DNA of 32,984 nt, taken from Seison nebaliae. Its lineage: Eukaryota. The position numbers and the translations under genes were made by a program. Where the stretch lies: NCBI GenBank assembly GCA_023231475.1, contig JALJEE010003233.1, forward strand, positions 1 through 32,984, given 5' to 3'. Every line of letters starts with the position of its first letter. Position 1 is the stretch's first letter. A model generated the notes under the pieces. The model was given only the letters and a program-made list of their open reading frames with translations, was not told the DNA's origin and made no database searches. Shown piece after piece: positions 2,998 to 30,899 of this stretch.

Positions 2998-3922
2998 ATG
3001 ATGGCCGCTAAAAGAAAAAGTCAACATCCATTCCGTATTGTGGAACAAATACCGAAAAGAAGTTCATTCTCCGAGAAAATGACTGATTTGATGTCACAAA
3101 AACGAACGACCGATGAACAAAATAGAACTGCTTCTTCAACTGGGAATGAACAAGAAACAAATCATGATAATAATAAGAGGAACTTGTTGACTAAGTTGAA
3201 CGAGGAAGATTTGTTGAAACTAACGAGTCTCAACAAAGAAAATAGTTGTCAACTGGAAAATCTTAAATCGAACAACGATTTCTTTTTAAATAATGAAAAT
3301 ATTCAAAAAATGTTTTCAAAAGACTTTCAAAAATTTTTCCTATTCCAATCAATCTTATTAAAATTATCTGAAAATAAAAACCAAATTCATCATCTCAAAT
3401 CAGCGAGTGACGTAGAAACTGGTGGAAATCCAATTTGTAAAAAAAAGCCAAGATTATGTAGTTCACCTGAAAGTTAATAATTTTCATTTTCATTTTTCTC
3501 ATATCTCTTTAATATTAGCAGATGAACGAAAAAATTCTACTTCAGACAAGAACGATAATACAAAAATTGAATTGGAATTCAAATGTCTACCATGTGGAAT
3601 CTCATTTAAAGCGAAACAAACACTGGAAGTGCATCAAAAATATTATTGTGCTTTCCATCCTTCCAATCATGTGAGTAATGATTATTCTTCGAAGAATATC
3701 GATAGAAATAGTAATAGTTCCCCTGCGAAAAATAATGAACAGAAAAAAGTAACTGAACGTAAAGATTCAAATGCTCCACGCCAACAAGTGGATCAGATAA
3801 ATGCAACTTTGATCGCAGTTAGACGTCAATTGAATCTATTGAATGAAAACTCAAAAAATCTCGAAATAACATTGAATAATTTATCAAAACAACTCCAAAA
3901 TATTTTTTCCAGTTCAACTTAA
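2998..3922 (+). CDS. Single FOG/U-shaped-type C2HC zinc-finger protein (~290 aa, 2 exons)
   Basis: Exons 2998-3472 and 3519-3922, joined by a 46-nt intron (GTTAAT...TAG, 3473-3518, NAGNAG alternative at 3521). Finger CLPCGISFKAKQTLEVHQKYYC has the FOG-type CX2C...HX4C 'HQKYYC' signature. Heptad-like C-terminus. Confidence 0.7.
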
Positions 3923-3975
3923 TTTATTATTTCAATTTATTTTAATGTATAAAAATTTTTGGAAAATATTCCCGC

Positions 3976-5508
3976 TTATTGCCAACAAGCACCATAGCTC
4001 ATAAGCACAATGTGTGCAGTGGGACTTCGACATATTGCTTCATATAAGTGACAATAGGAATTGTACGTTTTATGGTTACTACCACATACTGGAAAGAATA
4101 TTGCAGGACAATGGTAATCACAACTGTTTTTGGTAGTAGTTGCTGTAATTCCTGGAAAGATTCAAGAATCATGTTCTAGGAAATTAGTTTTAGAAAATCC
4201 TAACCTATTCCACTGATTGTTGAAGTTAATGGTTTTCCGTTTTTGGTTGTTGATCCCAAAAATTTCTTTGTACTGGTTTTAATCATTTTCATTGTGCTTC
4301 GATATGTAGGCGTTACTGTCCATGTGATTCCGGTATAATTCTTAATTGTACTTGGGATATAAGGTCTCTTAGTAATACCATCTTTATGAAAGAGTTATCA
4401 AATGAAAATAAGAAACTGTTAACGAGAATTTTGGCAGGGACCACTGTGTAAAATCTTTAAATCGGGTACCGAACATTGTTTTTCAGTATATCTGCAGTAA
4501 TTTGGATATGTATGTCCATCATTGGCACATTGAGGATCATTGTAATTTGAACAATTAAGTTGAGTGCAATTATTATTTAAAACTATATAAGTAAGTAATT
4601 AATTGAATGAGTTCTAGTTCCAATAATTTTAACGTCTTCGACACTCTCCTTCGTGTAATAAATGAATTTTTGAGTCGTAACATTGAGCTGTAAGCAATTC
4701 ACATTTATTACCATATGTCTTATCATCGCTACCACAAACTGGATGATAAATTTCTGTGCAATCTAAATGGCAATCAATTCTAGGAATTGTTCTCTATTGG
4801 AAAGCGTTAATAATTAAGGAATTTTTACGAAATATATAACTTTCGTATAACATTTACCATCGTACAATTTATATAATCCAGGTTGTCCACATGCAGTATT
4901 CTTTAAAATACATTCGTTAGTGTATGTATGTCCGTCACTTGCACAGACGGGTTCATAGACATCGTGGCAGAAAATTTCTTCACACACTTCTTGAGGTTCA
5001 TATGGATCTGTCACATAAAAGGAAGAAGCATAAAAAATAAATATTCATAAGAATAACTACTGTTGCAAGGTAATTTGTGCACCATATACAAAGAAGAATT
5101 TTGACATTGAGCTTTAAATAATTCACAGCGAGAACCAAACGTCTTTCCATTACTTCCACAAACCGGATAATAATATTGAGGACAATGAATTTGGCTACAA
5201 TTATATGCTCCCAGTTTCCTATTTCTGCCTTCAATACATTCTTCGTGACGAATGATTTTCAAATCATTATTTTCCATTTTGGCCTTTACAAAGAAACATA
5301 AATTCTTATAAGTATTTCCATCATTTCCACATACGTGGTGAGTTGTATTAGGACATTTGGTATTTATACCAATAAGGTTCTTCAGTCCATGATTCATATG
5401 AAGTGCTCCATTTTTTCCATGGAGTCCATGCTGTTGTGGCTTTTCAGCATTAACATTGCAGATCAATGCGATTGAACAAAAAACGGATAGTAAAACTAAG
5501 TTTTTCAT
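3976..5508 (-). CDS. Secreted multi-domain Kazal-type serine protease inhibitor (6 Kazal domains, Thr-rich linker)
   Basis: Signal peptide [21 protein letters not shown]; six 'PVCGSD/NGKTY.N.C'-like units. Introns 5057(or 5060)-5008, 4840-4794, 4633-4583, 4423-4382 and 4204-4152 keep the frame open to TAA at 3978-3976. Confidence 0.9.
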
Positions 5509-5901
5509 TTTTTTTATTGAAAAATTAAAGATTTAAGAAATAGTTTTCGGTATATATAAATGCCTAAGAGTTTCAATTATGTAAATAAGGCATTTTACTG
5601 TTGTTCCACAAACAATCATCATTCATTTGGTCATTTCTAAAAATCTATTGACATTCTTTTTAAATTAATCTGTCTACGCATCAACAATGGAGAAGAACCA
5701 AGGAAATTTTTCATGAATCAAGGATATAAGAAAAAAGTTAAATAAACATCTAAATACTTATTACCTTATTTTACACATCATAATATTATCATGTTATTTT
5801 CGGGGGAGTTGTCGAATGAAAATTTTAATTATAATTAGACAAAATGTTTGTATAGTTCAGTAGAACTGAAAAACAAGATATAAAATTAAAATTAAAAAAA
5901 A

Positions 5902-7107
5902 TTATTTGCCGATAGTTTGCTTAATCCAATCGATATAGTTCTTTACACGAACATACACTCCCGTTCCATCACAGTTCGATGTTCCCCACGATACGATACC
6001 GTATAACTTCCAAGAAGTTTCTGAATCTACCATTTTTGCATTTTATTGAATTATAAGAATTTATAATGTAACTTTTTTGATAAACGAATGGACCACCGGA
6101 ATCACCTTGACATGCATCTCTAACTTGTTGATTTTTTTTGACGACTAATAATTTTTAATAGAAATGTTTAAGAGAAGACAAGACCTGGAACACCAGCACA
6201 AATCATGTTTTCAGTTATTTGTAATTTGCACTTGTCTTTTCCTTTGGTTGGAACTGCAACTTGTTGTAGTTTTCCTAAATCACCCGACAATGATGTTCCC
6301 ATAGTTTTACCCCATCCTGTCACTATACCCCAACTACCATCTGATAAATCATCATCTGGCAGACAAACAATATTCACTTCCTTATCCAATGTAGCAGGTC
6401 TATCTAATTGTACTAGTGCTAAATCGTGGTTATGTTTTTCGGGGGACGTTCTCGATTTTATATTGTATTTTTCATGCGTTATAATTTTCTTTATTTCAAA
6501 AACTTGTCTATGTTTTTCATCTTTCTTCATTTTCTGGTGCACTCCAAGCATTACTTTCCAGCGAGATTTAGGAATAGAAAACCTAAAAATATAAAATTAT
6601 TAATTGAAAATTTATTATTTCTAAGATAAAGATAATAAAAATAGAAACTCTTTAAAACAATGTGCTGCAGTCAATATCCATTGAGGAGCAATTAATGCTC
6701 CTCCACATTGATAATAACTGAAACTGGTAACACTTCCACGCAACCAAGTTTGCCATGGCCAAGAATGAGGTTTCGCTTCTCGTCCACCAACAACACGACC
6801 AGACCAAGTGGATGGTTTTATTTCAGGTTTCCCACAATTTCCATAATTTGGTGACGTGATTCTGCTTTTCTCAACATTTTCACAAAGTTTCCCACTAAAT
6901 CCATCAGGACATTCACATTTTATAAACAAATAACATTTCCCTCCATTGTGACATGGTTTAAACCAATGACAAACAGCTGGAATTATAGAACCAAAAGAAT
7001 AGAAAGTAAAAGAAATTCATAATAAAAGTTAAACATTCGATATCCCCAATTACTTGTGATAGAATTACCAACAGTAATAATGGTGACGAATAAATGAAAA
7101 AAATCAT
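5902..7107 (-). CDS. Secreted EGF-domain trypsin-like (S1A) serine protease
   Basis: Signal peptide, EGF (CHNGGKC...CECPDGFSGKLCE), activation site R|VVGG, triad motifs TAAHC, HDLAL and DACQGDSGGP (Asp189, trypsin-like). Introns 7034-6977, 6648-6583, 6184-6145, 6072-6027; stop 5904-5902. Confidence 0.92.
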
Positions 7108-7317: not shown

Positions 7318-10300
7318 CTAGGTAAATGGAACACCAACACATATAAATTGTTTATCTTCCTTTTCAGGCAATTTCAATGTAATCGTATTTATTTTAGGTA
7401 CCTTGGGTATTTGAATATCATCCAATTCGGAGACTACTTCTGTCGAAAATGAATCGAACGTAAGTTCAAAATCAAGATCTTCCTCTGTATCATCTTCTTT
7501 TTTACTGCTTTCCATAGTAAGACGAGATTTCCTTGAAATTGATGGTTGTTTCACTTTCGATTGTTTTTCTTTCGGAATATATTCAGGAACATTATCTCGA
7601 CAAAAATTAAGAAATTTATGTTGTTCGTCTTTAAACTGTTTAATGTATTCGGCAAATTCCTCTTCAAATCGCTGAGCCTCTTTACTCCAATCCTCTTTCA
7701 AACTTGTCTGTTTACCAAACTTAATCGCAGAACCGGGACTCCCACCTTTTATTAAGAAATCTAGAAAATTTTAATACAACAAATTGTTCGACATATTATA
7801 AAAGTTTTCTATATAACGATCCACAAAATTTATTCCATTGTTAATTGTATCTTCAACATTTGTAATCGAATAATTTGTGATTGCTGATCGCACACCAGCA
7901 ATTGTCCAAAACAATTGTGCATTATACAATTTATCAAGATTGCACGTTTTCTCTCTAAGAATGAATGATAAAGTTTGAAATACTTCTAATTCATATAACC
8001 TTATTCCATCATCATACATTCCACGATCTTCTAATTGAGGATTTAAATGTGCACTGTTCATTAATACCAAAACTTTAGTTTCTATGTTTATCATATTCAT
8101 GAAATTTATTCAAATTTTCGTTTATAAACTAAGAAATAACTTTGCAGATTACATGTAATGATACTTTCATAAGAATAATATCTCCACAACTTATTGAACA
8201 GGAAAAGGAAGATGAATGATGTTTCCGTGAATATTTTGGTTAGATCTCTTATACTGTAACAATATAATTTATTAGTTCTTCAAACAATTTGAAATTTAAC
8301 CCAGGTAAAATCTTATAGAATCCAGTGTCCTTCGATTCATACTGCCTTAGACTAGACAAAAATTCCTTCATTTGACCATTAATCGGAGCAGACGTGTCTT
8401 TTTGATAACTTCTATCAAAACCACCAAGCGGATCCACTATCCATCCCAATTTTTCGTCTGCTCTTTGCTAAAAAGATTTTAAGAATTATCATTAAAAGAA
8501 ATATATAAATAAAAGAAACGACGTCTTTCGAATTTTTCTTTATCGTCATAGTAGACTTTAAAAATTAAATTTAAAATTTGGAGATAAATTAATTGTTGAA
8601 CTTCATCCTCTTGTTTTGAGTCAGGAATCTTGGGGAATGTTTGGAATCGGTTTAATAAAGTGAATAGAGAGAGATCTCTTGATATGCCTACAATTGTCGG
8701 TTTTAGGAAGGTGTTGATATTCTCAAGAGGCCATTCCATAGTTTCCTTATCCACGAGAAGTATCAAATTGACATCTATAAATATTGTTATGAATAAAAAA
8801 GATTATTATTAAATAAACTATTTTCGTAGCTATCCGGTTGTTTTATTAGAATTGGAGGATCTTTGAACAATGGTAATAATCGTTCGATTTTTTCCTTAAT
8901 ATTTAAAGAAATGGAATAGGTTATTTCTACTGAAGGAGGAGGTCTCTCATTCGCTTGCTTTTCTTTTACTTCTTTCCATTCGTAATTGGGAATTCCATTA
9001 ACAAATGTAGGAACTTCAGGATAATCACCACTGTGCATCCGATCATATTCTGCCGCCAGATCTTGGAAAAGAGCTTTATGCTCTAACGAATTTGAGGGAT
9101 CACCTTTCTTTTTCGTTTCTTTTGTGAAACAGAAAGCGAATTTATCATGCAATGGAGGATCACCAAGTGCTTCATTCAATTGATGTTGAACTTCATTGAA
9201 GGCAAAACTAAAATAATTATTCATTTGACCAACAATATTCTGATAATCTGCTTCGAAATTTATGAATTGTTCTTCCAATATTATTTTATTTAACTGGAAT
9301 ATAGAAAGAAATTGTAATTAGAGAAAATAGGAATTATTAACTAACTTTTGATTCTTCTGTTTCATTCAACATTCTGATAGTATCTTCATTCAATTTCTTC
9401 TTCAAATGAAATGTCCCTAATGCTTTTTTCCAAACTTCAATTTTAGAATTTATCTCTTGTCGTTCATTTGTGGAATACATAACCTTTCGAAATGCACAAA
9501 ATGATTCTTTTAAAAAATATAATACTATTATTGAGTTATACGATTTGTAATTTAACTTTCTTCATTCGAATTTGAAGATGTGTTGAAAGGAGGACGATGA
9601 TAAATTCCAAAAAATAGATAACGATTGTCATGAGAATGTTGAATCTGTAGAATTGTTGCATTATATTTCTTATAGAGATGGGGGAGTAATTTAAGATCCT
9701 TCAAATTTAATGTCGATATTCTCCACAACTAGAAAAAGATTCATAAAAGAATAATCAAAAAATTTTTAATTCGAACTCTTGAATTCAATCTCGCATCTTC
9801 AAGGAATCTTTCTAAACCGTTATGTGTGTTAACCGGAGTAAATTCAACGTTGACGTATCGTCCATAAAATTCACCTGAATAGCCGAATGATATCAAATGT
9901 AAATCCATTCCCATAATCGAATGGAGAATTCGATGGTTGATTGTCGAATAGAGACTTTTCTTCGGTTCATCGAATATTTCATGTAACAATTGCATTTTAT
10001 CCAAACTAACGATTAAAGCTTGATAAATGCTCATGTAGAGTACGGCTAATTTGGGATACTTTTTAAAATGACTTAACAGATGCATTAAATCATAACATAT
10101 CATTTTCATCAAACATTTATCTTCTGGTAATTCCACTACACCTTTCAAATCCACCACCATTTTAACGAAGCATTTCGTTAGACATTCGAATGCAATTAAA
10201 TAAAAGATATGTTTCTGATTCATTGCTATTCTTAACAAACTGGATGAATCATATCCTTTCACACTACTATCAGACAACACTTTTTTTATCGACACCATAC

Positions 10301-13300
10301 TCGTCAGATCATTATCTAATCTTAGTGTATCTGATTGTATGATGAAGGAGACCATCAAATCATAAGAATAAAACATTAAAGTGGCATTTTCAGTGGGTGA
10401 GTCGGGATTGAAATCGATTCCCATAAAATTGTGTTCCTTCAACCACGTTTTAGCATCTTCAAAGAATTTCTCATCAAATTCATTCTTTGATGTAATAATC
10501 GCTGCAATTCGAAAAAATTTTCCACAAATGTAAATAAATTCTCTTTGACATAAACGATTATTGGGAAATAATTTCAATTGTTTCTCATACGATACCAGTT
10601 CACTGAATGTTTTTGTCAAAAAAATTTCCAACCAATTATTCCATAAACGCAAGAAATGATAATCATTCGCTATATCGTTCGTATATTCTTTTAGAACGAT
10701 ATCAATCTTCCGAATATTTCGATTCATATAATTATATTTCGCATTAATATATTGCTCATATTCATACATTTCCAATAAATGTAAAATGTAAAGATAGCGA
10801 ATGAAAAGATATAATCGAAGAGTTGGTGTCGTTACTGAGAAGAACATATTAGCGCCAACATCATCCCAATGATATTCAGTTTTATCAGAAACATTTAAAA
10901 TATTTTGACTTCCTACCGTCAAATTCATGGTAGTCGTATCTAAATAATTACCAAGATTCCTAATCAATTGTTGAAATAATTGATTGGCAACTAATAAATT
11001 CGATTTAATATCCGTCTCAACATCCGAAGTCTTCGCCATAAACTTCAACAAACTCAGATGATTCAATACAGTTTTTATGTAGAACTTTATCTCTTTCACT
11101 TCCCAGAACCATTTAGTGGCCGTACGATAATAGTTTATCGCTTGTTGTAAATTATCATATGAATTTATGGAATGCATATCATCTCCTTTAATTCCCAATG
11201 CAAATATGAGATCAGCTAATTTCAATTTCAATTTCATTTTCATCGAATATAACCGATAGACAACAGAAAAATTTTTGGGATGAGTACTCGGATTAAATGA
11301 GAATTTCTTCATTTCAACAATATTATCTCCCCACAAGTCGTCGTCAGTTTTCTTTAATTGTAAGAAGAATGCCAAATCTTTTAAACATTCCAGATATTCT
11401 TCATCATTTCCTAAATTGAGAGATAGATTTTCATCTTCAGTCAGAACATCTTCAGTCTCTGTTGTTGGAGATTGTGTTTGTAAATTTGATTCTTTTTTTG
11501 GATTCATATTCTTCTGTATTAAATTTTTTACCGTTTCAATTGCGGATAATGTTATACTTCTCGCACCCAATAATGCTTTAGTATTTGAATGAATACTTGC
11601 TGTTCCATCAATCAATAGATTGACTGTCTCAAACCACAACACATCAGGTAAATTCGAATTTTCTAAATTTTTCAAAGCAATTTCCATTCCTTCTTCAACT
11701 CTCTGTTCTTGCTCAATGGCGATTTTCGAAAGAATAACATTGAAATGAACTGTCGAAATGATATTTTTCAAATTAATTGAATGTACCAAAACTCGTGATG
11801 CAATACTGCGACAAATACCCACTTTCCGTTCTGGCAAATATTCAATGATATCTCGAATAATCGTTGACCATAATCGATATTCGATAATTTTTTTAATTGA
11901 TTCTCTTGTAAATTTTTGATTAGAACTTCCTTTATTTGTTAAACGACTCAACTGTTCTTCCTTCAATGGATGTTCGCCATCCCAGATATCAGAAATGGAT
12001 GTTAATTCGATAGAATTTCTAATTTCATTTGACCATTCGATTATAAAATTACTTAAATTATTTTCAATCAAATTTCGATATGTTACGATTTTTCTCGTGT
12101 CGTTAATTCTCAAAAGAATTTTGAAGATGTTTAACATTGAACGTAAACGCAAAAGAATATTATTCGCGTGAAATGAATCAATTATATGATATTGTAAATA
12201 AACGACAGGTAACGAGAATAATTCGAATTCCATTTTTGGCATTATATCTAACAACAAATCGAGATAATAAATTGTATGTAAACTATTACCGAAATTTTCA
12301 GAAGAAAATGGGAAAATACCATCTCCTTCAATATCGTCGTCAATATTTTCGAATGATGGTGAATAAAAATTGTAAGATATCCAGAATTGTAAACTGATTA
12401 AAGAGGAGATTGTATAGTCTTTCTTCTTCCCACCAGAGTCCTTTCTATTTGATCGTTGTCTCTTTCCTCTTCGACTACCACCTGCATCTTTATCTGGCGT
12501 TTTCGTTAACGCCATTCGCCAAATATAAGCAATGATAACAATGGAAGTAACGATTGCTTCGGTACATAATACAAATTTCCCACATGAATAATAATATTGG
12601 GCTAAGAAAATTTTGGTGCGTAAAAAACAGTCCAAATATTTACATGTTTTGGGTAACTTCTTTATGCTGACGATACTCTTCTGCCAAATCGATAACTTGT
12701 CAGCATTAGCAAATAATTGAACGAATTGTTTCTGATAATCATCCGATTCAAATGAACGATTAAGTGGTGAATGAATTAGAGAAGATGTCAACATAATTCC
12801 ACAAAAATGTTGAAGATCATCACCAAATGAATTTGCATGAAGATATTGCATCAATTCTATAATTATTTCAAAACGAGTCAATCGATTTTGTAGTTCACTT
12901 TGTGAACGATTTCGAATAGCTAATTCTAATGTTTCCGAATCACCATTTTCAAGTGGCACATTACGTAGACATTCGTTCGCTTGTTTTGTCGATATATCGT
13001 CGATCGAATAGAAAATTTTTTGCCAAACTGTACTCAAATGAGAATGTACTCCATCCAATATTTGAACAGCATTCTTCACTGCACATAAATGGTCAAAATG
13101 ATTTCGGGACGCAACTGCCACTGTGATCCACATGAGAGCTATATATTCGATGGATTGTTCACGTAAATTGTGCATATCGAATTGAACACCCTGCCCCAAT
13201 TTTGATTTGGAAATAATGAGAAATTTTGTTAATTCTAATCGATGAGATCTGGGAACGGTTGGTAAAGCATCCTGAAGTAAATCTAAAGATTTCTGCCATA

Positions 13301-16300
13301 AACATCGTTGTTGATAAACTCGAAGAATTGCTACATAATATATGACTCTTAAAGTAAGATCATCGAATGCATCTTTATTATCAAACAATCCTTTCGAATT
13401 TGCATTCGTTTTAATATTCGACATCATTCCACTCATCTTCGAATTTTCTAAAGTTACCAAATATCCGTTAGGAAACTTCACATGATTTTCTTTTAATATC
13501 TCAGAAATCTTCTCATAATAATCTAATAACAAATATCGTTTGTTTGACGGAATGATATTGACGACACTATTCCAGAAACATCTTGCTCCATTAATCACTA
13601 AATCATAATTTGATGCTTCTAAACCATATCGAATGCTTTTGAGCAATGCATTAAATCCCAATTGTGTTTGTCTATTAATTTCATTAGTTTGAAATAATGA
13701 TTCAGAATTGTCCGATTTCTTTAATGCATCCAAACCTCCCAATAACGGTATCGCTAAATAAAAATGAACAATTGAGAAATTGATTAACGGATTTTGACTG
13801 TCTTCCCTTTGATGTTTAATTGCTCTCTTGTATGATTGGTCATTGCTCAAATTGATTGCCATTTGTGCAGCTAAAAACATCATTTGTAACGGATTGAGAT
13901 TCTTTGATTCTTTTATCACTTTTGCAATTTCATCAACTGCGTTCAATCCTTTCAAAACAGCCGGATTCTCTGTGAAGGGTGTATAAACTCCAATATTCAT
14001 TAATATCAATGTCGACGTTTGACAGATGAGAATGAGATCTTGAAAATAAACATCTGGCGCATATTCATACCAGTGACTGGATGATGTTTGATAATTAAGA
14101 AATATCTTTTTTAAAAAAAATTATTTTTTAAATTTTACATAATCAATACTGACTTCAGCAAATGAAGGAATTTGACTGAAATCAAATTTTCGTTTTTCCA
14201 TAAATCTCGACTTCTCCAAATATCGACAATACAATGCAACCGAATATTGGCTCAAGTCATCATATATCTTTAATTTGCTAAGAAATTCTTTGCACGAATC
14301 AGTCATACCCGCTTCAAATTGATTATGTTTCGATACGTCAGTAGCATTCGAAGAACTACGATGAAATTTCCCGGTCCGAGACGATGTAACACGAGATTTT
14401 AAAGTCTTCGTTGATTCAGTCACATCTCGGATGTCGGAGGAAGTGGTCGATTTATGTTCCATTGGACTAGTCTATAATTGAATATATTTCACCTCGCTAA
14501 TATACATTCCATAATATACTACTAACAATTGATTGATAAATGGGATAAAGAGTTGATTGACGAAGTTGATGCCATAATAATTTCACTTTTATCGGTTGTT
14601 GCAATTCAATTTTGAGGATAACCCAATATTTGATGAGTGGCATACGATAATTATAATCCAATACATGGTGTGGCAATTTATCACTTTCTAATATCAATAA
14701 AACTTCTTCACAAATCTTTAATATATATATCGTCAAAATTACAGAAAAAAAATGGTAACTGTTAATGCTAATTTTAAATCAGTTAATCTTTCTTTTGATA
14801 CATTCTTCATCGCTTCATTCTTATCCATTTTCATTTGAATACCACTCGGTTTCACTTCTATAATAAAGTCAAGATTTATTAATAAATCTTCTCTTTAAAA
14901 AAAATCGAACTGACAAGTTGAGTTTCGAAAATTTGATATAATTCCACTGTATCATAATCAATAATTTTCCATCTGGCAAACGTACATTTGATGACCATCC
15001 TTGCTAAACATACGTAATGTTCAACATTCGTACCGAATCCGTTGTAATAAATAATGTAGAAACAAGTGAGTAAAGTATCGTTCAATTTGGATAAATGACG
15101 AAAAATATATTCTTGACCCAACGAACTATTTTCCACTAATCTCTCCTTGACTGAGATGTCAAATGAACGGAATAAATGATAATAATAATTCCAAGTATAC
15201 GTCAACGCATTAATATTCAACCAATTCTCATCTAATAACAACGCGATCTGCATAGCTCGATTAAAATGCATAACAGCCGCATTGCCCAACCATTCCAACC
15301 AGTATTTATATGCGAACCATTGAGTAAGATTCTTCTCATATGATCGATTGAGTTGATGAATTTTACTTTCGACTGTTAATTTTTGAGCAACCCCAATATC
15401 AATATTTATTGATAATTGTGAAGCTGGTTTCTCTACAGCAGCCATTAGAACTTCAGCATTTTGTTTCATCGTTTCATTAGTGATATAGTTCAATGGTTTC
15501 AATTCTAAATACAATACCATGAATAAAATATTTCATTTGAGTTTTATAAAGAAAATTTAAAACTTTGTAATTTGATTAAATGAATCAATGATTCACCTCT
15601 TAACAAATGCATTTCGCCAAGGCTACGCAATATTCGTCGTTTATCTTCCTTTACAATTTTTGCATCTTTTAATACCGCTAAATATTTGGCTAATTCCAAT
15701 GGAAAATCTTTATCGACCAGAGTTCCTCTATCCAAAAACAATTTAATATATTTGTCAAATAAATTTTCAATCAAATAGAAGAAACCTTGCATCTTCTTCA
15801 GTAGGTGTTGATTCTTTCACATTCGCCCATTGAAATAAACAACTGATTGGCAACTGAACAATATTGAAATGAGGTTTACGAATATATTCTTCATATAATT
15901 TAATATGTTTATCTATTTTCGATGTTAAATCGACATCGTTATAATTCAATGATACTGGATTTTCTACCATTCCATCAGTTTCATCAACTATCGGATTTTC
16001 CAACATTATTGTATCATCATATAATAAACAATATAATGTACTTATTCGAACGATTTCCCATTCATCTCGTCTTCGAGCGGATTGTGCAATATCAGCCCAA
16101 GCATAAAAATCTTCAGCTAATTCACCTAATTGTGATTGAGTACCAAATACAAAAAATTTTATGAAATCATTAGAATCATCTTTCTTTCCTGTCTTATCCG
16201 TTGTGATGTCGGTCGTTATAGTTGATGGAGATGGTTCATCTTCCAGATCTTTCTCCGTTTTGTCAATTTTCAAGATTTTTTGAAATTCCATTCCCACATA

Positions 16301-18662
16301 ATGTTGAGCTTTCATTACTGTTTTCATATATTCATTAACTATCCGATACACATCTGGCAAATTCGTCTCATCAATTTTAGTTATCGATTTTAAAAGACGA
16401 GTCACCGAATTTTCTGATTTCCACATCATCTCTACGTTAGCCGCTCCCAAAAGATTACAACATTTCATTAACAAGTTCTTCGCCATTCCCATTTGTCTCG
16501 AATCATCGGTAGTACGTAAATTTTCCAGGACAGTTCTAGCAATATCTCGATCGTGTGAGAAATATTCAACCCGATCCGTAACATAACACATTCGTTTTCC
16601 CATCATTCGTATATATGTCGTATGCTCGTGATGTACATCATGGAACCATGCCTACTAATAGAAATTTAATTTTAATTTAAAATTTACAAACTCCATGTAC
16701 ATGTTTAATTCCTGCATTGATAGCGTCTTCATCATATAAAATTTTTGCACATTCTATATGTAATTTACATCTCAATTTTCGATTGTTACTGAAAATTATA
16801 ATTTAATTAATATTTAATTCATTAACATTCTTATCGGAACCTTTTTATCGTTTTCAAAGTTTCAGTAACAGAAACTAATGATTTCTTCAATTTCTTCCTT
16901 ACACCTTTCTGTAATAACGGTTGGACAGTATTCCATACTAAAGAACAACCGGTTTCTAAAATTCCATAAATTTCATTCATTTCGAGAATATATAAATGAT
17001 ATTTGTCATTCCCAAACTTATCCATCACATCAGCAATATATTGAGTCAACTTCTCAATGACATTCACTCGAGTATTTATCATGTCATCACTATAAGTTCG
17101 TTGATATTTACCGATTTTTTTCATTAACATAAGTGTTTTAAGATAATGAAGATGATGTTGATTGAAATCGTTGAGTTTCTAAAAAAAATAAAATTTTCTA
17201 CAAATATTTTGGAAGAAATGAAACTTCTCTAATATATGTTAAATGATCAACAATCTTCTTCATTAGAGAATAATGATGTCCATTGAATAAGAAGTAAGCT
17301 AATTCAATCATAATTCTTGCGGTTTCATCATTCGTTTCCATTGGTGGTAAATCAATCTTCATGTTTGGTACTTCAACTGCAAAATCATTTACTGGCAATT
17401 CAATCAAATCTCTATCAGTTGCTGTTAATTGATAATTCAGATTGAATGCTGGAGCTTCAGTTACAATAATAAATTAATTTATGATGAAATAATATACCTA
17501 ATAAACACCTGATGTAATTGTTTCAATACCTTTCGGCAATAATGCTTCAATAATCCATTGAGCATGAAAAATTTTCATGCTGTCCGATATCTTCATGTGC
17601 GTTAATATGACAATGCATGCATAAATATAATCGAATGGAGTCTCCGTCAATTTCTTGAGGAATACATTTAACGAAAAAATTTCACTTGTCACCTGATGAA
17701 AAATAATATTTTATTATTTTATTAATTACTAACAACAATAGAAATTATTCGTCGTCGAATATTAGTCGATTGAACACTATTTTGTGTTCGATTTAGAAAG
17801 ATGTCGATTAATTGTGAGATTTCATTCGTATCATTCCCTTCCCGATTCGTAAAATAACAATATTCATCAATTTTCCCTTCAATTTCCAAACTAAAAAAGT
17901 TTTTCTAAAAATCATTAATGAATTAAAATATTTGACCTGCTAGCAAAATTATATAAATGTGATGGACAATTCTTTATTTCAAGAAATTTCTTTTGGAATT
18001 GTTTGAGAGTATTCACTGTGAAACGTTTAGTTCCATCATAGAAATTGGTTTTCCATGAATCCCAAAACAAAATGAAAGATCTGAATATAATGTCTTTATT
18101 TCTGTCCATATTCGTGGAATTAAATTATTATAATATTATTCAAAAAGAGATATAACTTTGCGGTAACATTTTCAATATTAATCGCTTTCGTTAAATATTT
18201 TGATATTTCAGTTAATCTCTCCTAAAAACGACGAAGAATATTAATGGAAATCACAAAAATTAAAAACAATCGGTTTTATCGCTGTTATTAAACTGATTGC
18301 TATCAGTTCATATTGGACGAGATATCCACGATGTAATGAAATATCTCCATTTCGGTTCCCACTGAAATATATATCTAAACATTGTTGAGCTGCTTTTAAA
18401 TTGTTAAACTATCAAAATTTCATAAATTATTCTGAATTTTCACAATGAAACTTTTACTGCTAATTCCGCTGCATCAATCAATATATCTGGAGTGAATATA
18501 ACCGCCTGATTTTCAACACCAATAAGAAGCAATGCAAATGCTTCGTCGAATATTTTATTATCTAATGATAACGTCAAATTAAGCAAATTATTAGGGTAGA
18601 GAACAGAAGAAACCTTCTGTGTTTTCTGCTTCTTTCAATTTTGTTTTTATTCTGGAAAACAT
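7318..18662 (-). CDS. CFAP46: Cilia- and flagella-associated protein 46 (TPR-like central-pair protein), 26 exons, roughly 3,300 aa
   Basis: The spliced N-terminus MFSRIKTKLKEAE...FTPDILIDAAELAVK...CLDIYF, the segment WNTVQPLLQKGVRKKLKKSL...LRCKLHIECAKILYDED and the C-terminal WIVDP...TCNLQ...CVGVP align with CFAP46 as I recall it. 25 short GT-AG introns join the ORF fragments in frame; one central exon spans 14105-9777. Confidence 0.85.
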
Positions 18663-19011: not shown

Positions 19012-19645
19012 ATGGATTCTCTAAATAGCGAAAATAGCCATTCTGGTACAGGAGGAGAAAGTTATTCTTTTAATTTTCATGTTCGATAATTGATGAAATT
19101 TCAAAAATTAAATAAAAATAGTTTTGGGATATATCGAAAGTTATGGCTGGTTCATTATTGGCGGTGTAGCGTTAATGTATTATGTTTGGCATCGATACAA
19201 GGATCAAATTGACAATCGAATAAATTCGATCAAAGCTGCAACTAGTGCTGGTATTAGGAAGAAAGATGATGACACCAGTTCCTTATTATTCATTTGATAA
19301 ATGTTTTTTTTATTTTATTTGAAAGAACAAGATAAGACGGAAGAACGAATACGTGCCGCTCGTCAAAAGTTACAAGAGAAACATGATGAACAATCGTTGA
19401 TGAGGAAATTGAAGAAGCAAGAAGCTGAACGACAAAAGAAGTTGTTGGAAATTGAAAAGCATGAACAACTGAAGAAAGGATTAAGTGTGAAAAAAGATGG
19501 AGATCTTACACTGGAAGATTTGGGACTTGGTACTAAAACGGAAAGACCAACAAAAAGTAAGAATGACGATTATAATCCTTTGATGGGTGATGGTGCAGCT
19601 TGTTCCCGAATGAAATTTCGTCCTGCAGCTGGTGGATGAGGTTAA
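19012..19645 (+). CDS. SELENOS: Selenoprotein S (VIMP) with Sec encoded by UGA at 19637-19639
   Basis: Exons 19012-19060, 19122-19277, 19326-19645. Motifs: ESYGWFII transmembrane segment, 'RAARQKLQEKHD' p97-binding helix, YNPLMGDGAACS. Ends GGT GGA TGA GGT TAA = GGUG*, the SelS C-terminus. A SECIS follows. Confidence 0.92.
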
Positions 19646-20485: not shown

Positions 20486-21822
20486 ATGAATCAATTTGAT
20501 CATTGGAGAGAGGTCGCACCTTTATCTTGCGGTGCTAATGCCACAGTGAACACAGGGTTTTATTTTACGAATGTTATTGGGAGTAATTTATCTTTAAACT
20601 TTTCAGAAGTTTCCGTCATTATGCAATACTTTCTGGTGTTACGACGGCTGATGATGATGTCAGTCAATCATTTTGGTGGTGGTGTTCTGGTGTCGATTTT
20701 TCTGTAGCAGGAACTGGTGGACGAAAATGTAGAAATTATATTCCTTCCTGGTCCATGTTATTAGAAACGATTATTATTTCACTTTTCTCAATAATCTTCG
20801 AATTATATCTTCCTTATACGTACATCTATGGAAAACGGAAGAGAAAAAATCATCAGAATAATATTGGATCTACATCTGCATCAAAAGATGTGGAACAAGA
20901 TAAGACGAATAAAAGAAAAGAATCGAAACGTGATCGAATGTCAGTTTCATTGGACGAATTTATTTCGGGGAAAAGTTTTGAAGAGAATTTACAACCAACT
21001 GAACCGAATTCTACACCAACTGTTGCATTTCTTCGAACTTTTTGTTGTATATTTCATGCTCTGGTGTGGGGTTTGGAACTCTCATACAAATTATCAACAA
21101 GACAAATGATCTGGATTCTCAATCCATGTCACGTTATCACATTTACACAATTGTCATTGTTGTTGTTGTTACCATGGAAAAGTAATCCAGAAGGAGCAAA
21201 TTCGAAGACATCAGTTAGATTAACGATGAATACTTCCAGTCTGACTTCAATTCATAAGATTTACAGGAATTCCAAAATTCAATTTCTTCTCATTTTCCTT
21301 CATACACATACCTGTTCAATGAATGGACCTCTATTGGCATTATTGTTTCCCATATTAAATACGAGATATCTCCCCGGCGAACAAGGAGTTTATTGGCTTC
21401 AGCATTTTCTTATTCTATTCGTTCCTTTCGTTCTCGTTCTCCTTCTTGATTATGATGGAAATGATTTGGTTGAAGGTGAATTTGAAAAGGAAGAGAAAGC
21501 TATTCCTTTCATTTATGGAACTGAATTCCGTTGTTCATTAGTATTTGGATTGGGTGTACAACGAATTTATAATCTACTTATACTTCAACCGATTGCTTTT
21601 GTGACAGGAGTCAATTTGAATAATATTATGTGTCCTGCTATCTCTGACCCTTTTAGCAATACATGTCACTATCGTTATTTCGTTCATTGTCATCAGACAC
21701 TTCTCGTTTTCGTTTTATCATACATCTATGCATATCTATTGGAATGGTGGATATATTTATACTACGCGAACACACGATATATTCAACGGGCGCATACTTT
21801 ATTCACAAAGAAGTATTCCTAA
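20486..21822 (+). CDS. TMEM164: Transmembrane protein 164 homologue
   Basis: Intron 20557-20606 links the ATG at 20486 to an exon with WCSGVDFSVAGTGGRKC, LELSYKLSTRQMIWILNPCHV, MNGPLLALLFP, YWLQH and VNLNNIMCPAISDPF, all characteristic of TMEM164. The start codon is less certain. Confidence 0.88.
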
Positions 21823-23113: not shown

Positions 23114-23282
23114 TTCGATAATCGAGAAAAAATCATTAATAAAATATTTGATGTTCTACCAAATTTTTTTTGTATTATTTCTTATTGATAATTCATATTA
23201 ATAAAATTCCAAAATTGAATATTCGAATTTTTAATGTCGAAGCCGCACAGGATCACCATCGTGAAAATAAGTCTCTTTCAAA

Positions 23283-24114
23283 ATGACAAAAGAAGAACCT
23301 ACAGATATTGTTAGTCAAACAACCGACGATGTCGTATTATCGAATCCCAATAAACGACTTATTGTAATTTTAGAACAAGCCAATTTGGAAACAGTGAAAG
23401 TTTCTCGTTTTCATTAAAAATCTTTATAAAAAATTTTCAAATCAGAATGGTCGATCATATGAATTATTAAATGCTGATCGACATCAACATATTATAAGGA
23501 AACATAAATTGAATTTATCCGATTGTCGACCAGATATTACTCACCAAGTTCATTTTCGTCAGAATTTTTTTTATAAGTTTTTCATATTAAATTTCAGTGT
23601 TTATTGATGTTAATGGATAGTCCATTGAATCGTTCGGGTCATTTACAAGTGTTTGTTCACACGAAGAAAGGTGTTCTCATCGAAATAAATCCACAAACGA
23701 GGATACCACGTACATTCGATAGATTTTGTGGATTGATTGTGCAATTACTGGATGAACTTTGTATTCGTGCTAATGAAACATCTCAGAAATTATTAAAAGT
23801 TTGTCTTATTTCCCTTAATGAAACTTTATGTATTTATTTGATAGATCATTAAAAATCCAGTAACTGATTATTTGCCGAGTGGATGTAAAAAATATGTGAT
23901 GTCGTGTCATGCGGAAAAGCAGATTCATGCTCGAGAATTAGTACCTAAAGATCCAAATGAGATAATTGCAGTGATAATAGGTGCAATTGCCAAAGGATCA
24001 ATTGGTGTGGATTATGGGGAAGGAGAATATTCAATCTGTTCTTATCCTTTATCTGCAGCTTTAGCATGCACCAAAATTTGTACAGCATTTGAAGATGAAT
24101 GGAATATAAAATAA
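23283..24114 (+). CDS. EMG1: rRNA small-subunit pseudouridine methyltransferase NEP1
   Basis: RLIVILEQANLETVK|NGRSYELLN, RPDITHQ|CLLMLMDSPLNRSG, RIPRTFDRFCGL, LLK|IIKNPV, YPLSAALAC. Introns 23400-23445, 23548-23597, 23799-23844. Confidence 0.96.
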
Positions 24115-24583
24115 GAATATAAAATAAATCTCTCTCATAAAAAGAAAAATATCATTTGTAAAATTTTCATTCATTTCATTTTACGCGAAAATAAACATAA
24201 TATTTTTCCCTTATCTTTTTTTGGAGCTTGTTTATTGATGAGAGTTTTGAACGAAAAAAATTATTCGCAAAAGAATTTGAGAGAATTGGAAAAAACTGAC
24301 ATACACCAAAATAAATGAGAGACAATTGAATGAATTCTTTTTTCTTCGTTCAATGAAAAGAATGTTTTAAGATACATTTTGCCCATTGGGAAATGGGAAA
24401 TTGAAAATTTATTTATTCAAACATACCCATCAATATTCATAGTCGAAACTCATTCAATAATCTTTCTTACCTAGAAATTTCATTCTTTCTTTCTCCAAAT
24501 TGTTTCCGAAAGAAAAAATGAAATTCATTTAAATTCAACTTTTGGCAGTGTGTTGATTTGAGGAATAATTTGGAAGGAAAAAA

Positions 24584-25850
24584 ATGACTGATAGTGGAAA
24601 TAAACGTCGCGAAATTTATAAATTTAATGCATCTTGGCCCATCTACGCTGTGAATTGGACATATCGATCAGATTCATTATTCCGAGTGATTATTGGATCA
24701 TTTCTTGAAGAATATACGAATAAAGTTCTCTCCAATAATTCTTCTGACAATTCAAGAATGAATAATATTTTCTATTAAAATAATTTTAGATACAAATTGT
24801 GAGTTTGAATGAAGATGTCGGAACGTTTCAAGTTGAGGCGACTGTTGATCATCCGGTACATATTTGATTGATAATTATTCGATTATGAAATTTATTTATT
24901 TTAGTATCCCGCTACAAAAGTAATATGGATTCCTGATCAAGTTCCTTCTTATTCTATCAAACTTTTTCCATTTAATTTTGAAATTTGAAGAATGATGAAT
25001 ATTGTTCTCTCTTTGCAACGACCGGTGACTATTTAAGATTGTGGCAAGTGTCATCTAATGGAAGTGATGCGAAACAAATATCTTTGTTGAACAATGTTTA
25101 AATTTATTTTTTTTTAAAAATATTCTTTTATTCTTTTAACAGAATAAAAATTCCGATTATTGTTCTCCATTAACATCTTTCGATTGGTGTGAAAAAGATT
25201 GTAGAATTCTTGCAACGGCATCTATTGATACGACGGTGACAATTTGGGATTTGTTGGTGGAAAAGAAGATTGGAGAGATAAAGGAGAATCGGAAAAATAT
25301 TTCATCTGCATCGTTGAAAACTCAATTGATTGCTCATGACAATGAAGTGTTCGATGTGGCCTTTGCAAGAGGATCAGCTGCTTCTTCAGATGTTTTTGCA
25401 TCAGTTGGAGCTGATGGTTCGTTAAGAATGTTCGATCAAAGAAATCTACAACATTCCACTATCGTTTTTGAAGAACCAAAAAATACACCATTATTACGAT
25501 TATCTTGGAATGCAGTAGATGATCATTATATCGCAACAATTGCTCTTCGTAGTAGTGATGTTTTCATATTTGATATTCGCGTTCCTAGTACACCGGTAGC
25601 TCGTCTTACATCTCATGTGGCACCGGTAAATGCCGTTTGTTGGGCACCGCATTCCGCTTGTCATATCGTTACAGTTGGAGATGATTCATTGGCGTTAATT
25701 TGGGATGTATCTCGTGTACCGATTGTGAATGAAGATCCAATATTGGCTTATACTGCGTCGTCAGAAATTAGTGGAGTTGCTTGGAACGCTAAAGTTCCTG
25801 AATGGACAACGATTGTTCATGATTCGACACTGGAATTTTTACGTGTATAA
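24584..25850 (+). CDS. DCAF7: DDB1- and CUL4-associated factor 7 (WDR68/AN11 family WD40)
   Basis: GSFLEEYTNK|IQIV, DHP|YPATKVIWIPD, TGDYLRLW, LNN|NKNSDYCSPLTSFDW, KTQLIAHDNEVFD, FASVGADGSLRMFD. Introns 24725-24789, 24856-24904, 24941-24990, 25096-25142. Confidence 0.96.
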
Positions 25851-26278
25851 TTAAAAGTTAAGACAATCAAATTCTTGTGTGGAATTAGTAGAATATGTTA
25901 TAAAATTTATAATTTTCATTTTTCTCACTTTTATAGATCTGCTTTCTTTAAGAACGATCGTTGTAAAATTTGGTTTTTTATTTTTAATTTTCATTTCCAT
26001 CTTTATTAAATGTCTCGTAAATAAAATATTTTAATTCTTGTAATAATATTCTCTTTCAAATGAAATATTATTTTCGGTATTAAGAACAAATTTAGTTTTT
26101 CAACAAATTTAGAATTAAAAAATTTGTATCTAAAATTAACGTTTTTACTGGTAATAATTTGCGCTCATCAAATTTCGTATAAGAGACTGTTCAGAAGAAG
26201 AGAAAATATAAAAATTATTTTTACTAATTTGTAGATAGACTACACTTTTTATTGAAATAATCTGTTACACTTAAAATC

Positions 26279-26728
26279 ATGAGTCAAAGCGACGGAGAAA
26301 GTAATATGGATGTCAGTTTAGAAGAGAAAGAAGTACATCTCGATGGATTAACGTCCACTCGAGATACACAGGTGTCACTCTTCGATTTAGATGATTTATC
26401 ATCTCAAAGTGAAAATGTTGTTAAGGAGAAGAATCCTTATGTGAAACTGATATCTTCAGACGAACATGTTTTCTTTATTAAAAGAGAATATGCAATGATA
26501 TCAAAAACTATATCGGCGATGTTGTCTGGTCCAGGAGAATCGGAAGGAGATGATGAAAATGAGATAATGTTAGCTCAAATTCCATCACATATCTTATCGA
26601 AAGTTTGTCATTACTTTCTTTATCAAACATACTGGACGACGAACAATAATGAGTATCCCACCAAATTTAAAATTTCACCAGACACGGTTCTCGAATTGTT
26701 GATGGCATCCAATTATTTGGATTGCTGA
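26279..26728 (+). CDS. ELOC: Elongin C with an acidic N-terminal extension
   Basis: YVKLISSDEHVFFIKREYA..SKTISAMLSGPG...IPSHILSKVCHYF...LELLMASNYLDC. Possible 5'-UTR intron 26189-26234 (GTTCAG...TACTAATTTGTAG). Confidence 0.92.
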   Translation: MSQSDGESNMDVSLEEKEVHLDGLTSTRDTQVSLFDLDDLSSQSENVVKEKNPYVKLISSDEHVFFIKREYAMISKTISAMLSGPGESEGDDENEIMLAQIPSHILSKVCHYFLYQTYWTTNNNEYPTKFKISPDTVLELLMASNYLDC

Positions 26729-26933
26729 AGAAAGTGATAAATGATATGGGAGCGGTTAATGGACACCAACTACAACTCAATAAATTAAATGAAATTTTTT
26801 AGCGTTGAATTTAATGCGAAATTCCATTTATATGCATTTTTTTATTGTTCTTAAATAAATTTATTTAATCTACTAAAGTAAACAATATGATTCTACAGTG
26901 AATGAAAAAAAATTCATTGAACAACATTTTTCA

Positions 26934-28424
26934 ATGTATTTTATAAAAATCTATTCATTTTTATTGGGTTGTATAGTGATATATGAATTTCAAAAATATG
27001 TTTTACCATTTTTCTACATTCATCAAGTACGTGAAAATGAAGTCCGAATAAACAAATCATTAGAAAAAGTCGAGGTAGTAGATAGCAAGGTAGTAAAAAA
27101 GAAAAAAAATCGAAAAGGTAAAATAATTCCTCCACTCTTCCTCAATTTATCAATAACGAATGCATGGAAGAAATTAACACTTCAACCATTAAATAATATT
27201 ACACATATTACATTAAAGAAACATCTATTGGATTATTTGGAAGTGCGTTCAAAATGCCCATCAAATATATTTTTAAAATTAAACAATTCATCAACGAAAT
27301 TGAAATGTGAAAATTTTTGGCAGTTTAAAGGTTTCAATATTGCCATCTATTTTAATCCTTTCTTCCATGTTCTTCCTCTTATAGATAATCAATCAGTTTG
27401 GCGTGTTTCACCAAAAAGCGATGAGAATTATAGAACTTTCGTTTATAATGGAAGTTATACACCTCGACATTGCCAAGCATTGCAACGAGTAGCTCTTATT
27501 ATACCTTATAGAGATAGAGAGAAACATCTCGAAATATTCTTGCATCACATTCATCAATTTCTTCAGAAACAAAGTATTAATTACGTAATAGTTTTAGTAG
27601 AACAAGTTCATATTATTCCTTTGATTTATTTTCAGTATATTATTCAGATCGATCGTCATATGTTCAATCGAGGTAGTTTACTTAATGTCGGAGTAATAGA
27701 AGCCGTAAAAATGGATCCATCAATTAGTTGTATAATTTTTCATGATGTGGATCTTTTGCCGTTAAGATTATCCAATTTTTATAATTGTTTAGACCAACCT
27801 ATTCATATGTCATCGGCAATTGATGTTTTGCATTACAAGTTTCTCTAATTAATTCCATTCATCGTTTTAACCGTTCATTTAATCTCTTAGATTGCCATAT
27901 CAAACATTGTTGGGTGGTGTATCAAGTTTCCCGGTAAATGTTGTGTTTGCAGTTAATGGATTTGCCAACATTTATTGGGGATGGGGAGCTGAAGATGATG
28001 ATCTATCTCAAAGGTTCTACAAATAACTTAAATGTAGGTAATTAATGAAAAGAAACTATTTTTAGAGTTCACTATTATTATAGGCAGAATTTTCACAGAT
28101 TCAAATTTCGACATTATCATAATACTTACGATAGTGGAAGATATACGATGGCGATGCATAATCATTCGGATTATCAACAAAATGGGTTAAAATTATTCCT
28201 AGATAGACGATTACCATAATTTGTGTTGCAGGATGTTATATAGGAATTACCGTAAATTTTTGAAAAGCGGTTTAAATACTCTCACATACAATTCTTCTTG
28301 TACTGCGACGAAATTGTATATGCATATAAAAGTATCCATCAAAGAAGAGGATTGGCCATCTTATAAAAAATTAAGAAGTAAAAATCAATGGAAGAAAACT
28401 AATAAATCGAAACCACTAGTTTAA
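26934..28424 (+). CDS. GT7 beta-1,4-N-acetylgalactosaminyl/galactosyltransferase (BRE-4-like)
   Basis: N-terminal TM, VALIIPYRDREKHL, FNRGSLLNVG, FHDVDLLP, LPYQTLLGGV, YWGWGAEDDD. Introns 27606-27647, 27839-27890, 28014-28065, 28186-28231. Start uncertain; the first in-frame ATG is 26934. Confidence 0.9.
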
Positions 28425-28917
28425 TTAACTGTATTCACAACTGAAATTAATCTATCCTCTTGTCCATTCACAGAATTTGACGGAAGTACAAAAAAATAAA
28501 TTAATATCATTAACAAAAGATGATATAGTTCCACATCAAGTCGTTACGCAATAAATAATGAAGTCTTATAAATATAACGGGGCAACTACAAATATATCGA
28601 TATAGATGTTAAGAGGACGTACCCTTTCTTACTAATGTTAACTTAACCATAAACAGAATTTAAAAAAAAACTAGTTCATACCAAATGATTCAATTTCAAC
28701 AAATTACAAAAATGTTATAGAAAAAGATTCCCATAAATTTTCATTTTCTAATCAATATGTAAATTATTTATATTAATCTCAAAAGTTCATTGATATCATA
28801 CATGAGAAAAATTTGGACGAAAAGACGATTGAAATCGATTATTGTGGATACAGTTCGGCAAAAATATAGATAATAATTTTTTCCAGAATTTTCATTCAAA
28901 ATTTTTTTATAAATAAA

Positions 28918-29931
28918 TTACTCTTTCTTCTCTTCAACTTTTTTCTGTCCAAATATTTTGCTTGAGGTATATAGCAACGTACCGGTGAACACGGCTGCTG
29001 TAGATAACCAGTGAACGATTGTGAATGGATTTTGGAAGTACCAAATGGAGAATATTAAAGAGACGAATTTTCTCAATGTAATAATTAAGGTAACAGTCAA
29101 TGCGTGACATTCGATAGTTAAAGTAAAGACGGATGAAATACAAATATATTGGGTCACAATATTTCCCAATAATAACATCCAAGGCGATACAGTTGAAACA
29201 ATATTGGCCATTATTCGAATTTGAGGTATAAGATCAGGTAAAAGTAGAATAAAGGTAGGCAGTGGTAGTAAATGACAAAAGAATAATGCTTCTTCTGTAT
29301 ATTTCCCATATTTTGAATAAACTCTCTCCTGTTGTATACCCAAACGTGCCGACAATACCATGGCGATGATGAGAATTAATAATCCAAAACACCACCATAA
29401 ATAAGCGACAATTGACGCATTTTCAACTATTTCGTCTGTAGTATTTGTCAAATTTTGGGTTACCATCTTCAATTCTGAACTTTTTAAATTTGCGGAAGCA
29501 ATCGTAGCACTTGTTATTCCAACGGCAATCAATAGAACCGCCAAATATTCTTCTAATTTATATCGTCGATTTTGCATGACGACACCTAATATCATTGTAC
29601 AAATGAGCGATCCAGATCGGAAGATCATATGTAATGGCATAGCGATATCGAAACTCAATGCGTAATTGTTGAGAATACTAACAATTGTAAATAATAAAAC
29701 TATTTTCACATATTCCATTATTGGTATATGGGAAAAGAATATAGATTTCTGATTATTCTCTCGAAAAATGAGTCGTTTAGATAATCCGATTGAAGAAACG
29801 AATACAAATTGCGCCAGTGTCACTATATTGCCAACACCTTGTTGCATTTTCACTAAAGTTTCCAAAAAGTAAACATTGGTGCAACAACCGATATATACGA
29901 AGAGAATGGCAAGACAAGCTTTCAGATTCAT
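28918..29931 (-). CDS. SLC35B4: UDP-xylose/UDP-GlcNAc transporter, intronless
   Basis: GCCTNVYFLETL, GNIVTLAQF, IAMPLHMIFRSGSL, LSARLGIQQE, TLRKFVSLIFSIWYFQNPF; dilysine-like tail KKVEEKKE. ATG at 29931. Confidence 0.95.
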   Translation of the reverse strand: MNLKACLAILFVYIGCCTNVYFLETLVKMQQGVGNIVTLAQFVFVSSIGLSKRLIFRENNQKSIFFSHIPIMEYVKIVLLFTIVSILNNYALSFDIAMPLHMIFRSGSLICTMILGVVMQNRRYKLEEYLAVLLIAVGITSATIASANLKSSELKMVTQNLTNTTDEIVENASIVAYLWWCFGLLILIIAMVLSARLGIQQERVYSKYGKYTEEALFFCHLLPLPTFILLLPDLIPQIRIMANIVSTVSPWMLLLGNIVTQYICISSVFTLTIECHALTVTLIITLRKFVSLIFSIWYFQNPFTIVHWLSTAAVFTGTLLYTSSKIFGQKKVEEKKE

Positions 29932-30080
29932 TTGTAACGACAAATGACTATCAGTCTAATAATAATAAAAAGAATCTTCTATAGAAAAGAAATTAATTAA
30001 ATTAATTAGAGGAAATTGGATAATTTATAAGGAATAAAATGGGGAGGAAAAAATTGTCATTTTCACAAAATATATTTCAC

Positions 30081-30899
30081 TCATTTCAATTTAATCAGAT
30101 CTTTATCAATCGAAAACTTTTCACTTATAATTGGTATCAGAGTTTTACTGTAATCTCCTTGCAACGTCAATTCCTTATCACTTCCCACGGCACAACCACA
30201 GCTAAATTTCTGTGAGAAAGCCTTTTTCGCCGCACTCAATTTCACGTTATGTGTCGACAAATTTGAAATGGTTGTCAATCGCTTTCCTCGATTCATGGTC
30301 ACCGATATCAAGATCTCTTTCGGTTCTTCAGTTTTGGTAACAATTTTATTAGCTTTTCCACCTCTTGATTGATGGCCTGTAGATTTCTCTTTCGAATTGT
30401 TCATTAATCACAAACAATTCAAAAAGAAAAAATATCATTATGAGATATCGAAGGTTAATATTTCGAACGTAGTTTCAACGAGGGGAAAATAGAAGTTTAA
30501 ACGACATATTATTTCAAGTTGTATATGAAAAATTTTTCTTTTTCAATTGTTTGTGATTAATAAATAATTCTAAATTAATTAAGCAATTTTTATAAACTAA
30601 CCGTTCGATACTCGAGTAGCATTAGCGGAACTTACTTTCTCATCGAAATTAGATATACATGTTGTTGTTGCTCTTGTTGAAAGAATACCATCATCATCAT
30701 CATTATTATCATCCTCATCATTCAATTGGAGATCGTTCAGTCGATTAAGTGCTACCATATCATTGATATTCATTCGATTTCTACGAAGCCACATAACACA
30801 TTTACTGTAATTTGGACCATATTCACAATATTCGTAAGGCAATCCACATTGACCACAATATTCCACTTCTAACGCTTTTAATTCAGTGGTTGTGTCCAT
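30081..30899 (-). CDS. DENR: Density-regulated protein (translation reinitiation factor, SUI1 domain), 2 exons
   Basis: VEYCGQCGLPYEYCEYGP zinc site; SUI1-like RGKRLTTISNL...FSQKFSCGCAV...LQGD. Phase-1 intron from 30601 to 30389 (alternatively 30377). Confidence 0.9.
30403..30561. repeat. 29-bp inverted repeat (28/29 identical) with a 101-nt loop inside the DENR intron
   Basis: ATTAATCACAAACAATTCAAAAAGAAAAA (30403-30431) versus TTTTTCTTTTTCAATTGTTTGTGATTAAT (30533-30561). Confidence 0.92.

Follow-up and report, generated by a model that had tools for sequence, protein, structure and literature searches.

Nearly all introns in a window of the Seison nebaliae genome, the whole stretch of 32,984 nucleotides (nt) of contig JALJEE010003233.1 that was analyzed, begin with GTT. 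We placed 51 introns in 10 genes on both strands from DNA and protein evidence. The third intron base (+3) is T in 45 of them, C in four, A in one and G in one. Against the animal consensus GTRAGT, +3 is a purine at two donors of the 51 and +5 is G at 10; no donor reads GTAAG or GTGAG. On present evidence the GTT donor code is real and derived, and our searches turned up no earlier report of it in Seison; Entamoeba is the closest case. We put the probability that the consensus is real and lineage-wide in Seison at about 0.9, and the code, shown in one 33-kb window, is likely genome-wide. A sequence-only reading of this window had proposed such a rewired code from 50 introns (T in 44 or 45, C in three, G and A in one each), with about 10 donors carrying +5G and none reading GTAAG or GTGAG. 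Our recount upholds these figures. All 12 donors that it had listed by coordinate have the letters it gave, its four glycosyltransferase donors were located, and the picture comes close to its phrase of length plus a minimal GTT.

Of the introns, 26 come from the NCBI CFAP46 protein, which was mapped exactly to the window, and the other 25 from reading frame, domains and homologues. All 10 spliced gene models translate without internal stops. Every intron has GT...AG ends; GC donors were permitted in the CFAP46, DCAF7, EMG1 and GT7 alignments and were never picked. Lengths range from 40 to 66 nt, with a single outlier of 213 nt in DENR, and the G+C content of the window is 30.6%. The genes and their donors are as follows.

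2998..3922, plus strand: zinc-finger-like gene; intron at 3473 (GTTAAT), with frame-compatible GTA alternatives and an ambiguous placement.
3976..5508, minus strand: multi-Kazal gene; 5057 GTTATT, 4840 GTTATA, 4633 GTTAAA, 4423 GTTAAC, 4204 GTTAGG, the first being ambiguous between 5057 GTTATT and 5060 GTAGTT.
5902..7107, minus strand: EGF-trypsin protease gene; 7034 GTTTAA, 6648 GTTTCT, 6184 GTCTTG, 6072 GTTACA, from frame enumeration, +3-blind scoring and Pfam.
7318..18662, minus strand: CFAP46-like gene of 3349 amino acids (Pfam TPR_CFAP46_N; NCBI protein P0121 mapped exactly); 26 introns of 40–59 nt with 22 GTT, three GTC (17936, 14153, 8522), one GTG (17508) and no GTA donors, for example 18613 GTTTCT, 18451 GTTTCA, 18267 GTTTTT and 9776 GTTCGA.
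19012..19645, plus strand: SELENOS-like gene (Pfam SelS); 19061 GTTATT, 19278 GTTCCT, from frame enumeration.
20486..21822, plus strand: TMEM164; 20557 GTTTTA, a single candidate donor.
23283..24114, plus strand: EMG1, also NCBI model P0122; 23400 GTTTCT, 23548 GTTCAT, 23799 GTTTGT.
24584..25850, plus strand: DCAF7; 24725 GTTCTC, 24856 GTACAT, 24941 GTTCCT, 25096 GTTTAA.
26934..28424, plus strand: GT7/B4GALT-type glycosyltransferase; four counted introns, 27606 GTTCAT, 27839 GTTTCT, 28014 GTTCTA, 28186 GTTAAA.
30081..30899, minus strand: DENR; one long intron (213 nt), likely donor 30601 GTTAGT.

The information in these donors is concentrated at −3 to −1 and +1 to +3, with little at +4 to +6. 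Position +4 is A in 22, T in 17, C in 11 and G in one, so that T falls below its 48% intron background, and the 10 occurrences of +5G exceed a 7% background (p 0.003). The last exonic base (−1) is A at 28 donors, G at 14, T at five and C at four; A at −2 followed by a purine at −1 is found at 29 of the 51 donors versus 44 of 457 coding GTs. Further into the intron, +9 is T in 37. Acceptors are TAG (26), CAG (15) and AAG (10) with a weak T tract, and no clear branch-point motif was found in the 51 introns (31 versus 27 in shuffles). U12-type introns, whose donor is RTATCCTT, were rejected, as no donor of this kind occurs in the set.

A local or annotation artefact, through base composition, a gene finder trained on GTT or a wave of new, mutually related introns, is very improbable. 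Inside the same introns GTT is as frequent as GTA (GTN: T 26, A 25, C 8, G 6), and AT bias is therefore rejected as the cause of +3T, as the sequence-only reading had argued. Across the window T follows GT at a frequency of 0.40 and A at 0.25; binomial p values at +3 are ~1e-12 for T and, for the scarcity of A, 8e-6. Selection by the reader is ruled out by junctions that leave no choice. At 31 of the 51 no frame-compatible GTA or GTG donor lies within 45 nt, and at the 21 junctions with a single candidate (11 of the 26 in CFAP46 have a single frame-compatible donor) the donor is GTT in 19 and GTC in two, so that all 21 are GTY. A scorer blind to +3 returned T 39, C 7, A 4 and G 1, with the same placement at 43 junctions and a different one at eight; homology overrules its choice of A at 24920 and 27585, two of the four, and at 4633 and 4423 of the multi-Kazal gene it chose GTC donors instead.

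Spliced alignments to homologues, which were donor-neutral and used no donor model beyond GT/GC, point the same way. The homologues were small picks from the 119 listed for DCAF7, 119 for EMG1 and 149 for GT7. All four DCAF7 introns were recovered with three of three homologues tried, and the three EMG1 introns with four of four. The GT7 donors were recovered by 9/10, 10/10, 7/7 and 6/6 of the homologues reaching each, while the acceptor of the third intron varied. Ten of the 11 donors fixed in this way are GTT, the remaining one (24856) being GTA; the pattern extends over ten genes and both strands. Relatedness among the introns was rejected as an origin (introners), since an all-against-all blastn of the 51 returned a single 14-nt match, and three of four DCAF7 positions are common with bdelloids. 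In favor of an artefact, a single NCBI model supplies 26 of the 51 introns, and the junctions rest on DNA and protein. In addition, the NCBI DCAF7 model (P0001) excises conserved coding sequence with two GTT introns at its 3′ end (25794 and 25897), from which it follows that the NCBI predictor favors GTT. These two, and the introns that the GT7 database model adds (P0242; among them an in-frame intron at 27331, GTTTCA), were left out of our counts.

The two 3′ introns of P0001 (25794–25936, plus strand) remove the conserved last 18 codons and alter the C-terminus, which is likely a prediction error. At DENR, a perfect GTAAGT at 30635, 34 nt upstream of 30601, is an alternative donor that would require a GAG acceptor. 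Because GAG ends none of the 51 introns, 30601 is likelier; the placement is still ambiguous. We did not use a joint of 30430–30585 in sequencing run X2, at first weighed in favor of the DENR donor, as its intervening letters are not known. Contigs of runs X1 and X2 over 14000–32984 are unspliced, and none came from X6 or X7.

Bdelloid rotifers provide the comparison. A scan with Rotaria DCAF7 gave 80 loci, five of them AT-rich and with ~50-nt introns. Of these L146 was excluded, its DCAF7 being identical to that of L147, and L147, L151, L152 and L180 were retained; they cluster with Rotaria at 99/100, in a bootstrap that had not fully settled. Their 31 donors are GTA in 23, GTT in seven and GTG in one (Fisher p 2e-9 versus Seison), of which 19 come from DCAF7 in the four loci and hence are not independent. 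The other 12 are from EF-Tu, RPS25 and RPL7 of L147, positioned by protein motifs; one EF-Tu junction, for which the script had no candidate (GTAAGA by eye), was omitted. The prevalence of GTA in bdelloids shows that the Seison code is derived, and the comparison sides with the sequence-only reading. That reading had also taken the excess of A over G at −1 (28 to 13) as part of the change. The count holds, at 28 to 14, and its novelty does not, because bdelloids show the same bias (A 17, G 8 of 31). The two groups also share short introns (44–73 nt in bdelloids), A-rich exon ends, intron positions and a GTT class, which in bdelloids is the minority.

Three of the four Seison DCAF7 introns match bdelloid introns in codon position. 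At these positions Seison has GTT in three of three and the bdelloids have GTA in 11 of 12, so old introns were converted. The bdelloid GTT donors differ from those of Seison in that all seven have G at +5 and T at +6, versus six of 45 (p 1e-5). Since Seison GTT donors rarely carry this pair, +3T would no longer be a weak site in need of rescue. The fourth DCAF7 intron (24856–24904, plus strand), which holds the sole GTA donor among the 51, is the one absent from the four bdelloid loci, and its age may differ from that of the other DCAF7 introns.

The donors themselves bear on what may read the +3 base. In U1 binding, +3 and −3 to −1 lie in one helix. An exonic CAG precedes three of the six non-T donors and none of the 45 GTT donors (post hoc p 0.001). 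This enrichment suggests that one helix reads both +3 and the exon end, as in the case of U1, and a U1 small nuclear RNA (snRNA) with A at position 6 is therefore favored. We hold this change as the cause of GTT donors tentatively, at a little short of even odds. In the proposed scheme the U2-type spliceosome would be retuned, with a U1 in which A replaces the pseudouridine at position 6 (ACUAAC) and pairs with U at +3. U1 would then pair across about −2 to +3, and a perfect exonic CAG would be required where +3T is lacking. The U6 ACAGA box would pair less strictly with +4 to +6, possibly in connection with loss of METTL16, and short length and AT-richness would contribute to intron definition. 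With A at position 6 the mean number of Watson–Crick pairs rises from 5.2 to 6.0, a direct consequence of the +3 count. In the standard model +3 pairs with position 6 of U1, after which the U6 ACAGA box takes over +3 to +6, while the exon end is held by U5 loop 1 (PMC11732430). The full scenario, in which U1 reads GUU, METTL16 and most dependence on the U6 ACAGA box were lost, and ancestral introns in their tens of thousands passed from GTA to GTT without loss, is rather unlikely as a whole.

For the splicing proteins we used the BUSCO calls in a supplementary sheet of PMC12256650, from which rows were retrieved by term. This answers in part the protein inventory that the sequence-only reading had proposed. 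Prp8 and SNRNP27 are called complete in Seison, as are PRPF6, Prp3, Prp31, SMU1, MFAP1, ZMAT2 and KIN17. METTL16 and SPF45 are called missing only in Seison among 25 syndermatans, and U5-40K is missing in Seison and one bdelloid. No rows for U1-70K, U1C or LUC7 turned up by term in this table. The METTL16 call is a lead only and may be non-detection, because about 40% of all BUSCOs are scored as missing in Seison, whose proteins are also long-branched.

No snRNA genes were found in the window by Rfam. A U1 gene of another invertebrate (80% likeness) was used as bait against runs X1, X2, X3 and one other. One U1-like contig was found in each of X1, X2 and X3, with 67 nt aligned and 12 differences. 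Its depth is 5.4 and 15.2 in X1 and X2, versus about 14 and 28 for the window (0.4–0.55x), and its upstream flank is GC-rich; for both reasons it may be another animal's. The U5 search gave nothing, and no U6 motif was found in the viral contigs or in five metagenome-assembled genomes (MAGs). Seven U1-pattern matches in viral contigs were set aside as chance. Several GTDB bacterial MAGs (L131–L138; G001–G005) include animal contigs bearing U1, U2, 5S and histone arrays, and one of them, G003, is 17.8 Mb with at least 11 U1 copies. The U1 bait was one of the U1 genes of other animals present as contaminants in MAGs; a histone search to identify its animal was of no help.

Several points weigh against the code as we read it and against a changed U1. 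All of the evidence is DNA from a single window. The exonic CAG comparison hinges on six introns. The U1-like contig spans the 5′ end of the canonical query, and it may be a canonical Seison U1 or that of another animal in the sample. The high share of missing BUSCOs and the long branches noted above count here as well. METTL16 loss predicts U at +4 (PMC10581693), and T at this position, in 17 of 51, stays under the intron background. Moreover, lineages with shifted donors mostly retain a canonical U1, as reported for yeasts, Giardia, Trichomonas, Thecamonas and Mamiellales (bioRxiv 10.1101/2022.06.08.495308; PMC10581693).

One alternative is that U1 is canonical or weak and that +3 is selected at the hand-over to U6, with U5 loop 1 holding the A-rich exon end. 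A normal ACAGA box would offer G44 as the partner of U or C at +3, and a changed box an A. A pyrimidine occupies +3 in 49 of the 51 introns, and among non-T donors C exceeds A by 4:1 versus 8:25 in intron bodies (p 0.03), although T-to-C transitions alone could account for this excess. GUUUGU is able to pair with ACAGA at +2 to +6 according to Roy and Bowser (bioRxiv 10.1101/2022.06.08.495308), A-rich exon ends match the U5-type donor class (PMC11732430), and the METTL16 call agrees. The main U6 pair, +5G, is however present at just 10 donors, and compensation by exonic CAG is better suited to U1. We consider this reading unlikely. We rate slightly lower the possibility that the snRNAs are canonical and that an altered protein (U1C, LUC7, Prp8, or a U-binding factor such as TIA1) dictates U at +3. 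To our knowledge no change in a protein shuts out purines at +3, and SNRNP27, Prp8 and the seven others listed above are called complete. In support of an altered protein, yeast donor shifts follow METTL16 and SNRNP27K and not snRNA sequence (PMC10581693), U5-40K, SPF45 and METTL16 are called missing, and T predominates at +9.

The U1 change that we favor has a precedent in Entamoeba, whose GUUUGU donors are reported together with a U1 of ACAAAC (Roy and Bowser, bioRxiv 10.1101/2022.06.08.495308). As in Seison, U replaces the usual purine at +3 as the genome norm, and introns are AT-rich. Entamoeba, however, is intron-poor and strict in GUUUGU (88–90%), whereas Seison, an animal, has many introns per gene, with only +3 fixed and GTTTGT in two of 51; the U1 change is reported in the former and is a prediction in the latter. 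The AG//GUNNN (U5 loop 1-type) donors and the shifts linked to METTL16 and SNRNP27K share with Seison a strong exon end and weak +4 and +5 (PMC11732430, PMC10581693); METTL16 is called missing in Seison. The linked shifts are from A to U at +4 (PMC10581693), whereas Seison has its shift at +3 without a +4U preference, its −1 is more often A than G and SNRNP27 is present. No description of Seison donor sites was found in the literature searched, which included PMC8351084, its supplements (searched by term, with no matches) and PMC10125929; subscription journals lay outside the search. A shifted register of U1 was rejected. Such GTTAAGT donors occur as human atypical sites and give introns that start with GTT, as in Seison, but AAGT is not found at +4 to +7 here: GTTAAG is absent from the 51 and GTTAGT occurs in four.

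A purine at +3 ranks with the most constant traits of animal donors, and here the main class has changed in an intron-rich animal. Roy and Bowser link donor changes mostly to intron-poor lineages (bioRxiv 10.1101/2022.06.08.495308). The change in Seison, at positions that are still GTA in relatives, suggests that donor code and spliceosome can shift together over an entire gene set, and Seison becomes a testable case of whether +3 is read by U1, U6 or a protein. For annotation, standard donor models will misplace introns in the Seison lineage.

Other features of the window were observed. CFAP46 has an exon of about 4.3 kb (9777–14105, minus strand) amid its 26 short introns, other exons being mostly <900 nt. 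The 3′ end of the SELENOS-like gene (19631–19645, plus strand) encodes Gly-Gly-TGA-Gly-TAA, which we take to be a selenocysteine-codon pattern; an Rfam scan found no selenocysteine insertion sequence (SECIS) element in the window. Short repeats with the core GGTGACGAA lie on both strands (by eye) at 1255–1330 and 1945–2215, in the gene-free left end. A high-copy repeat starts at 32818–32984, with a depth of ~740 in X1 and 1600 in X2 versus 14 and 28. Low-depth contigs (2–4), ~91–93% alike, lie over DCAF7 (25498–25582) and DENR (30342–30430), which suggests that the runs include a diverged second copy or lineage.

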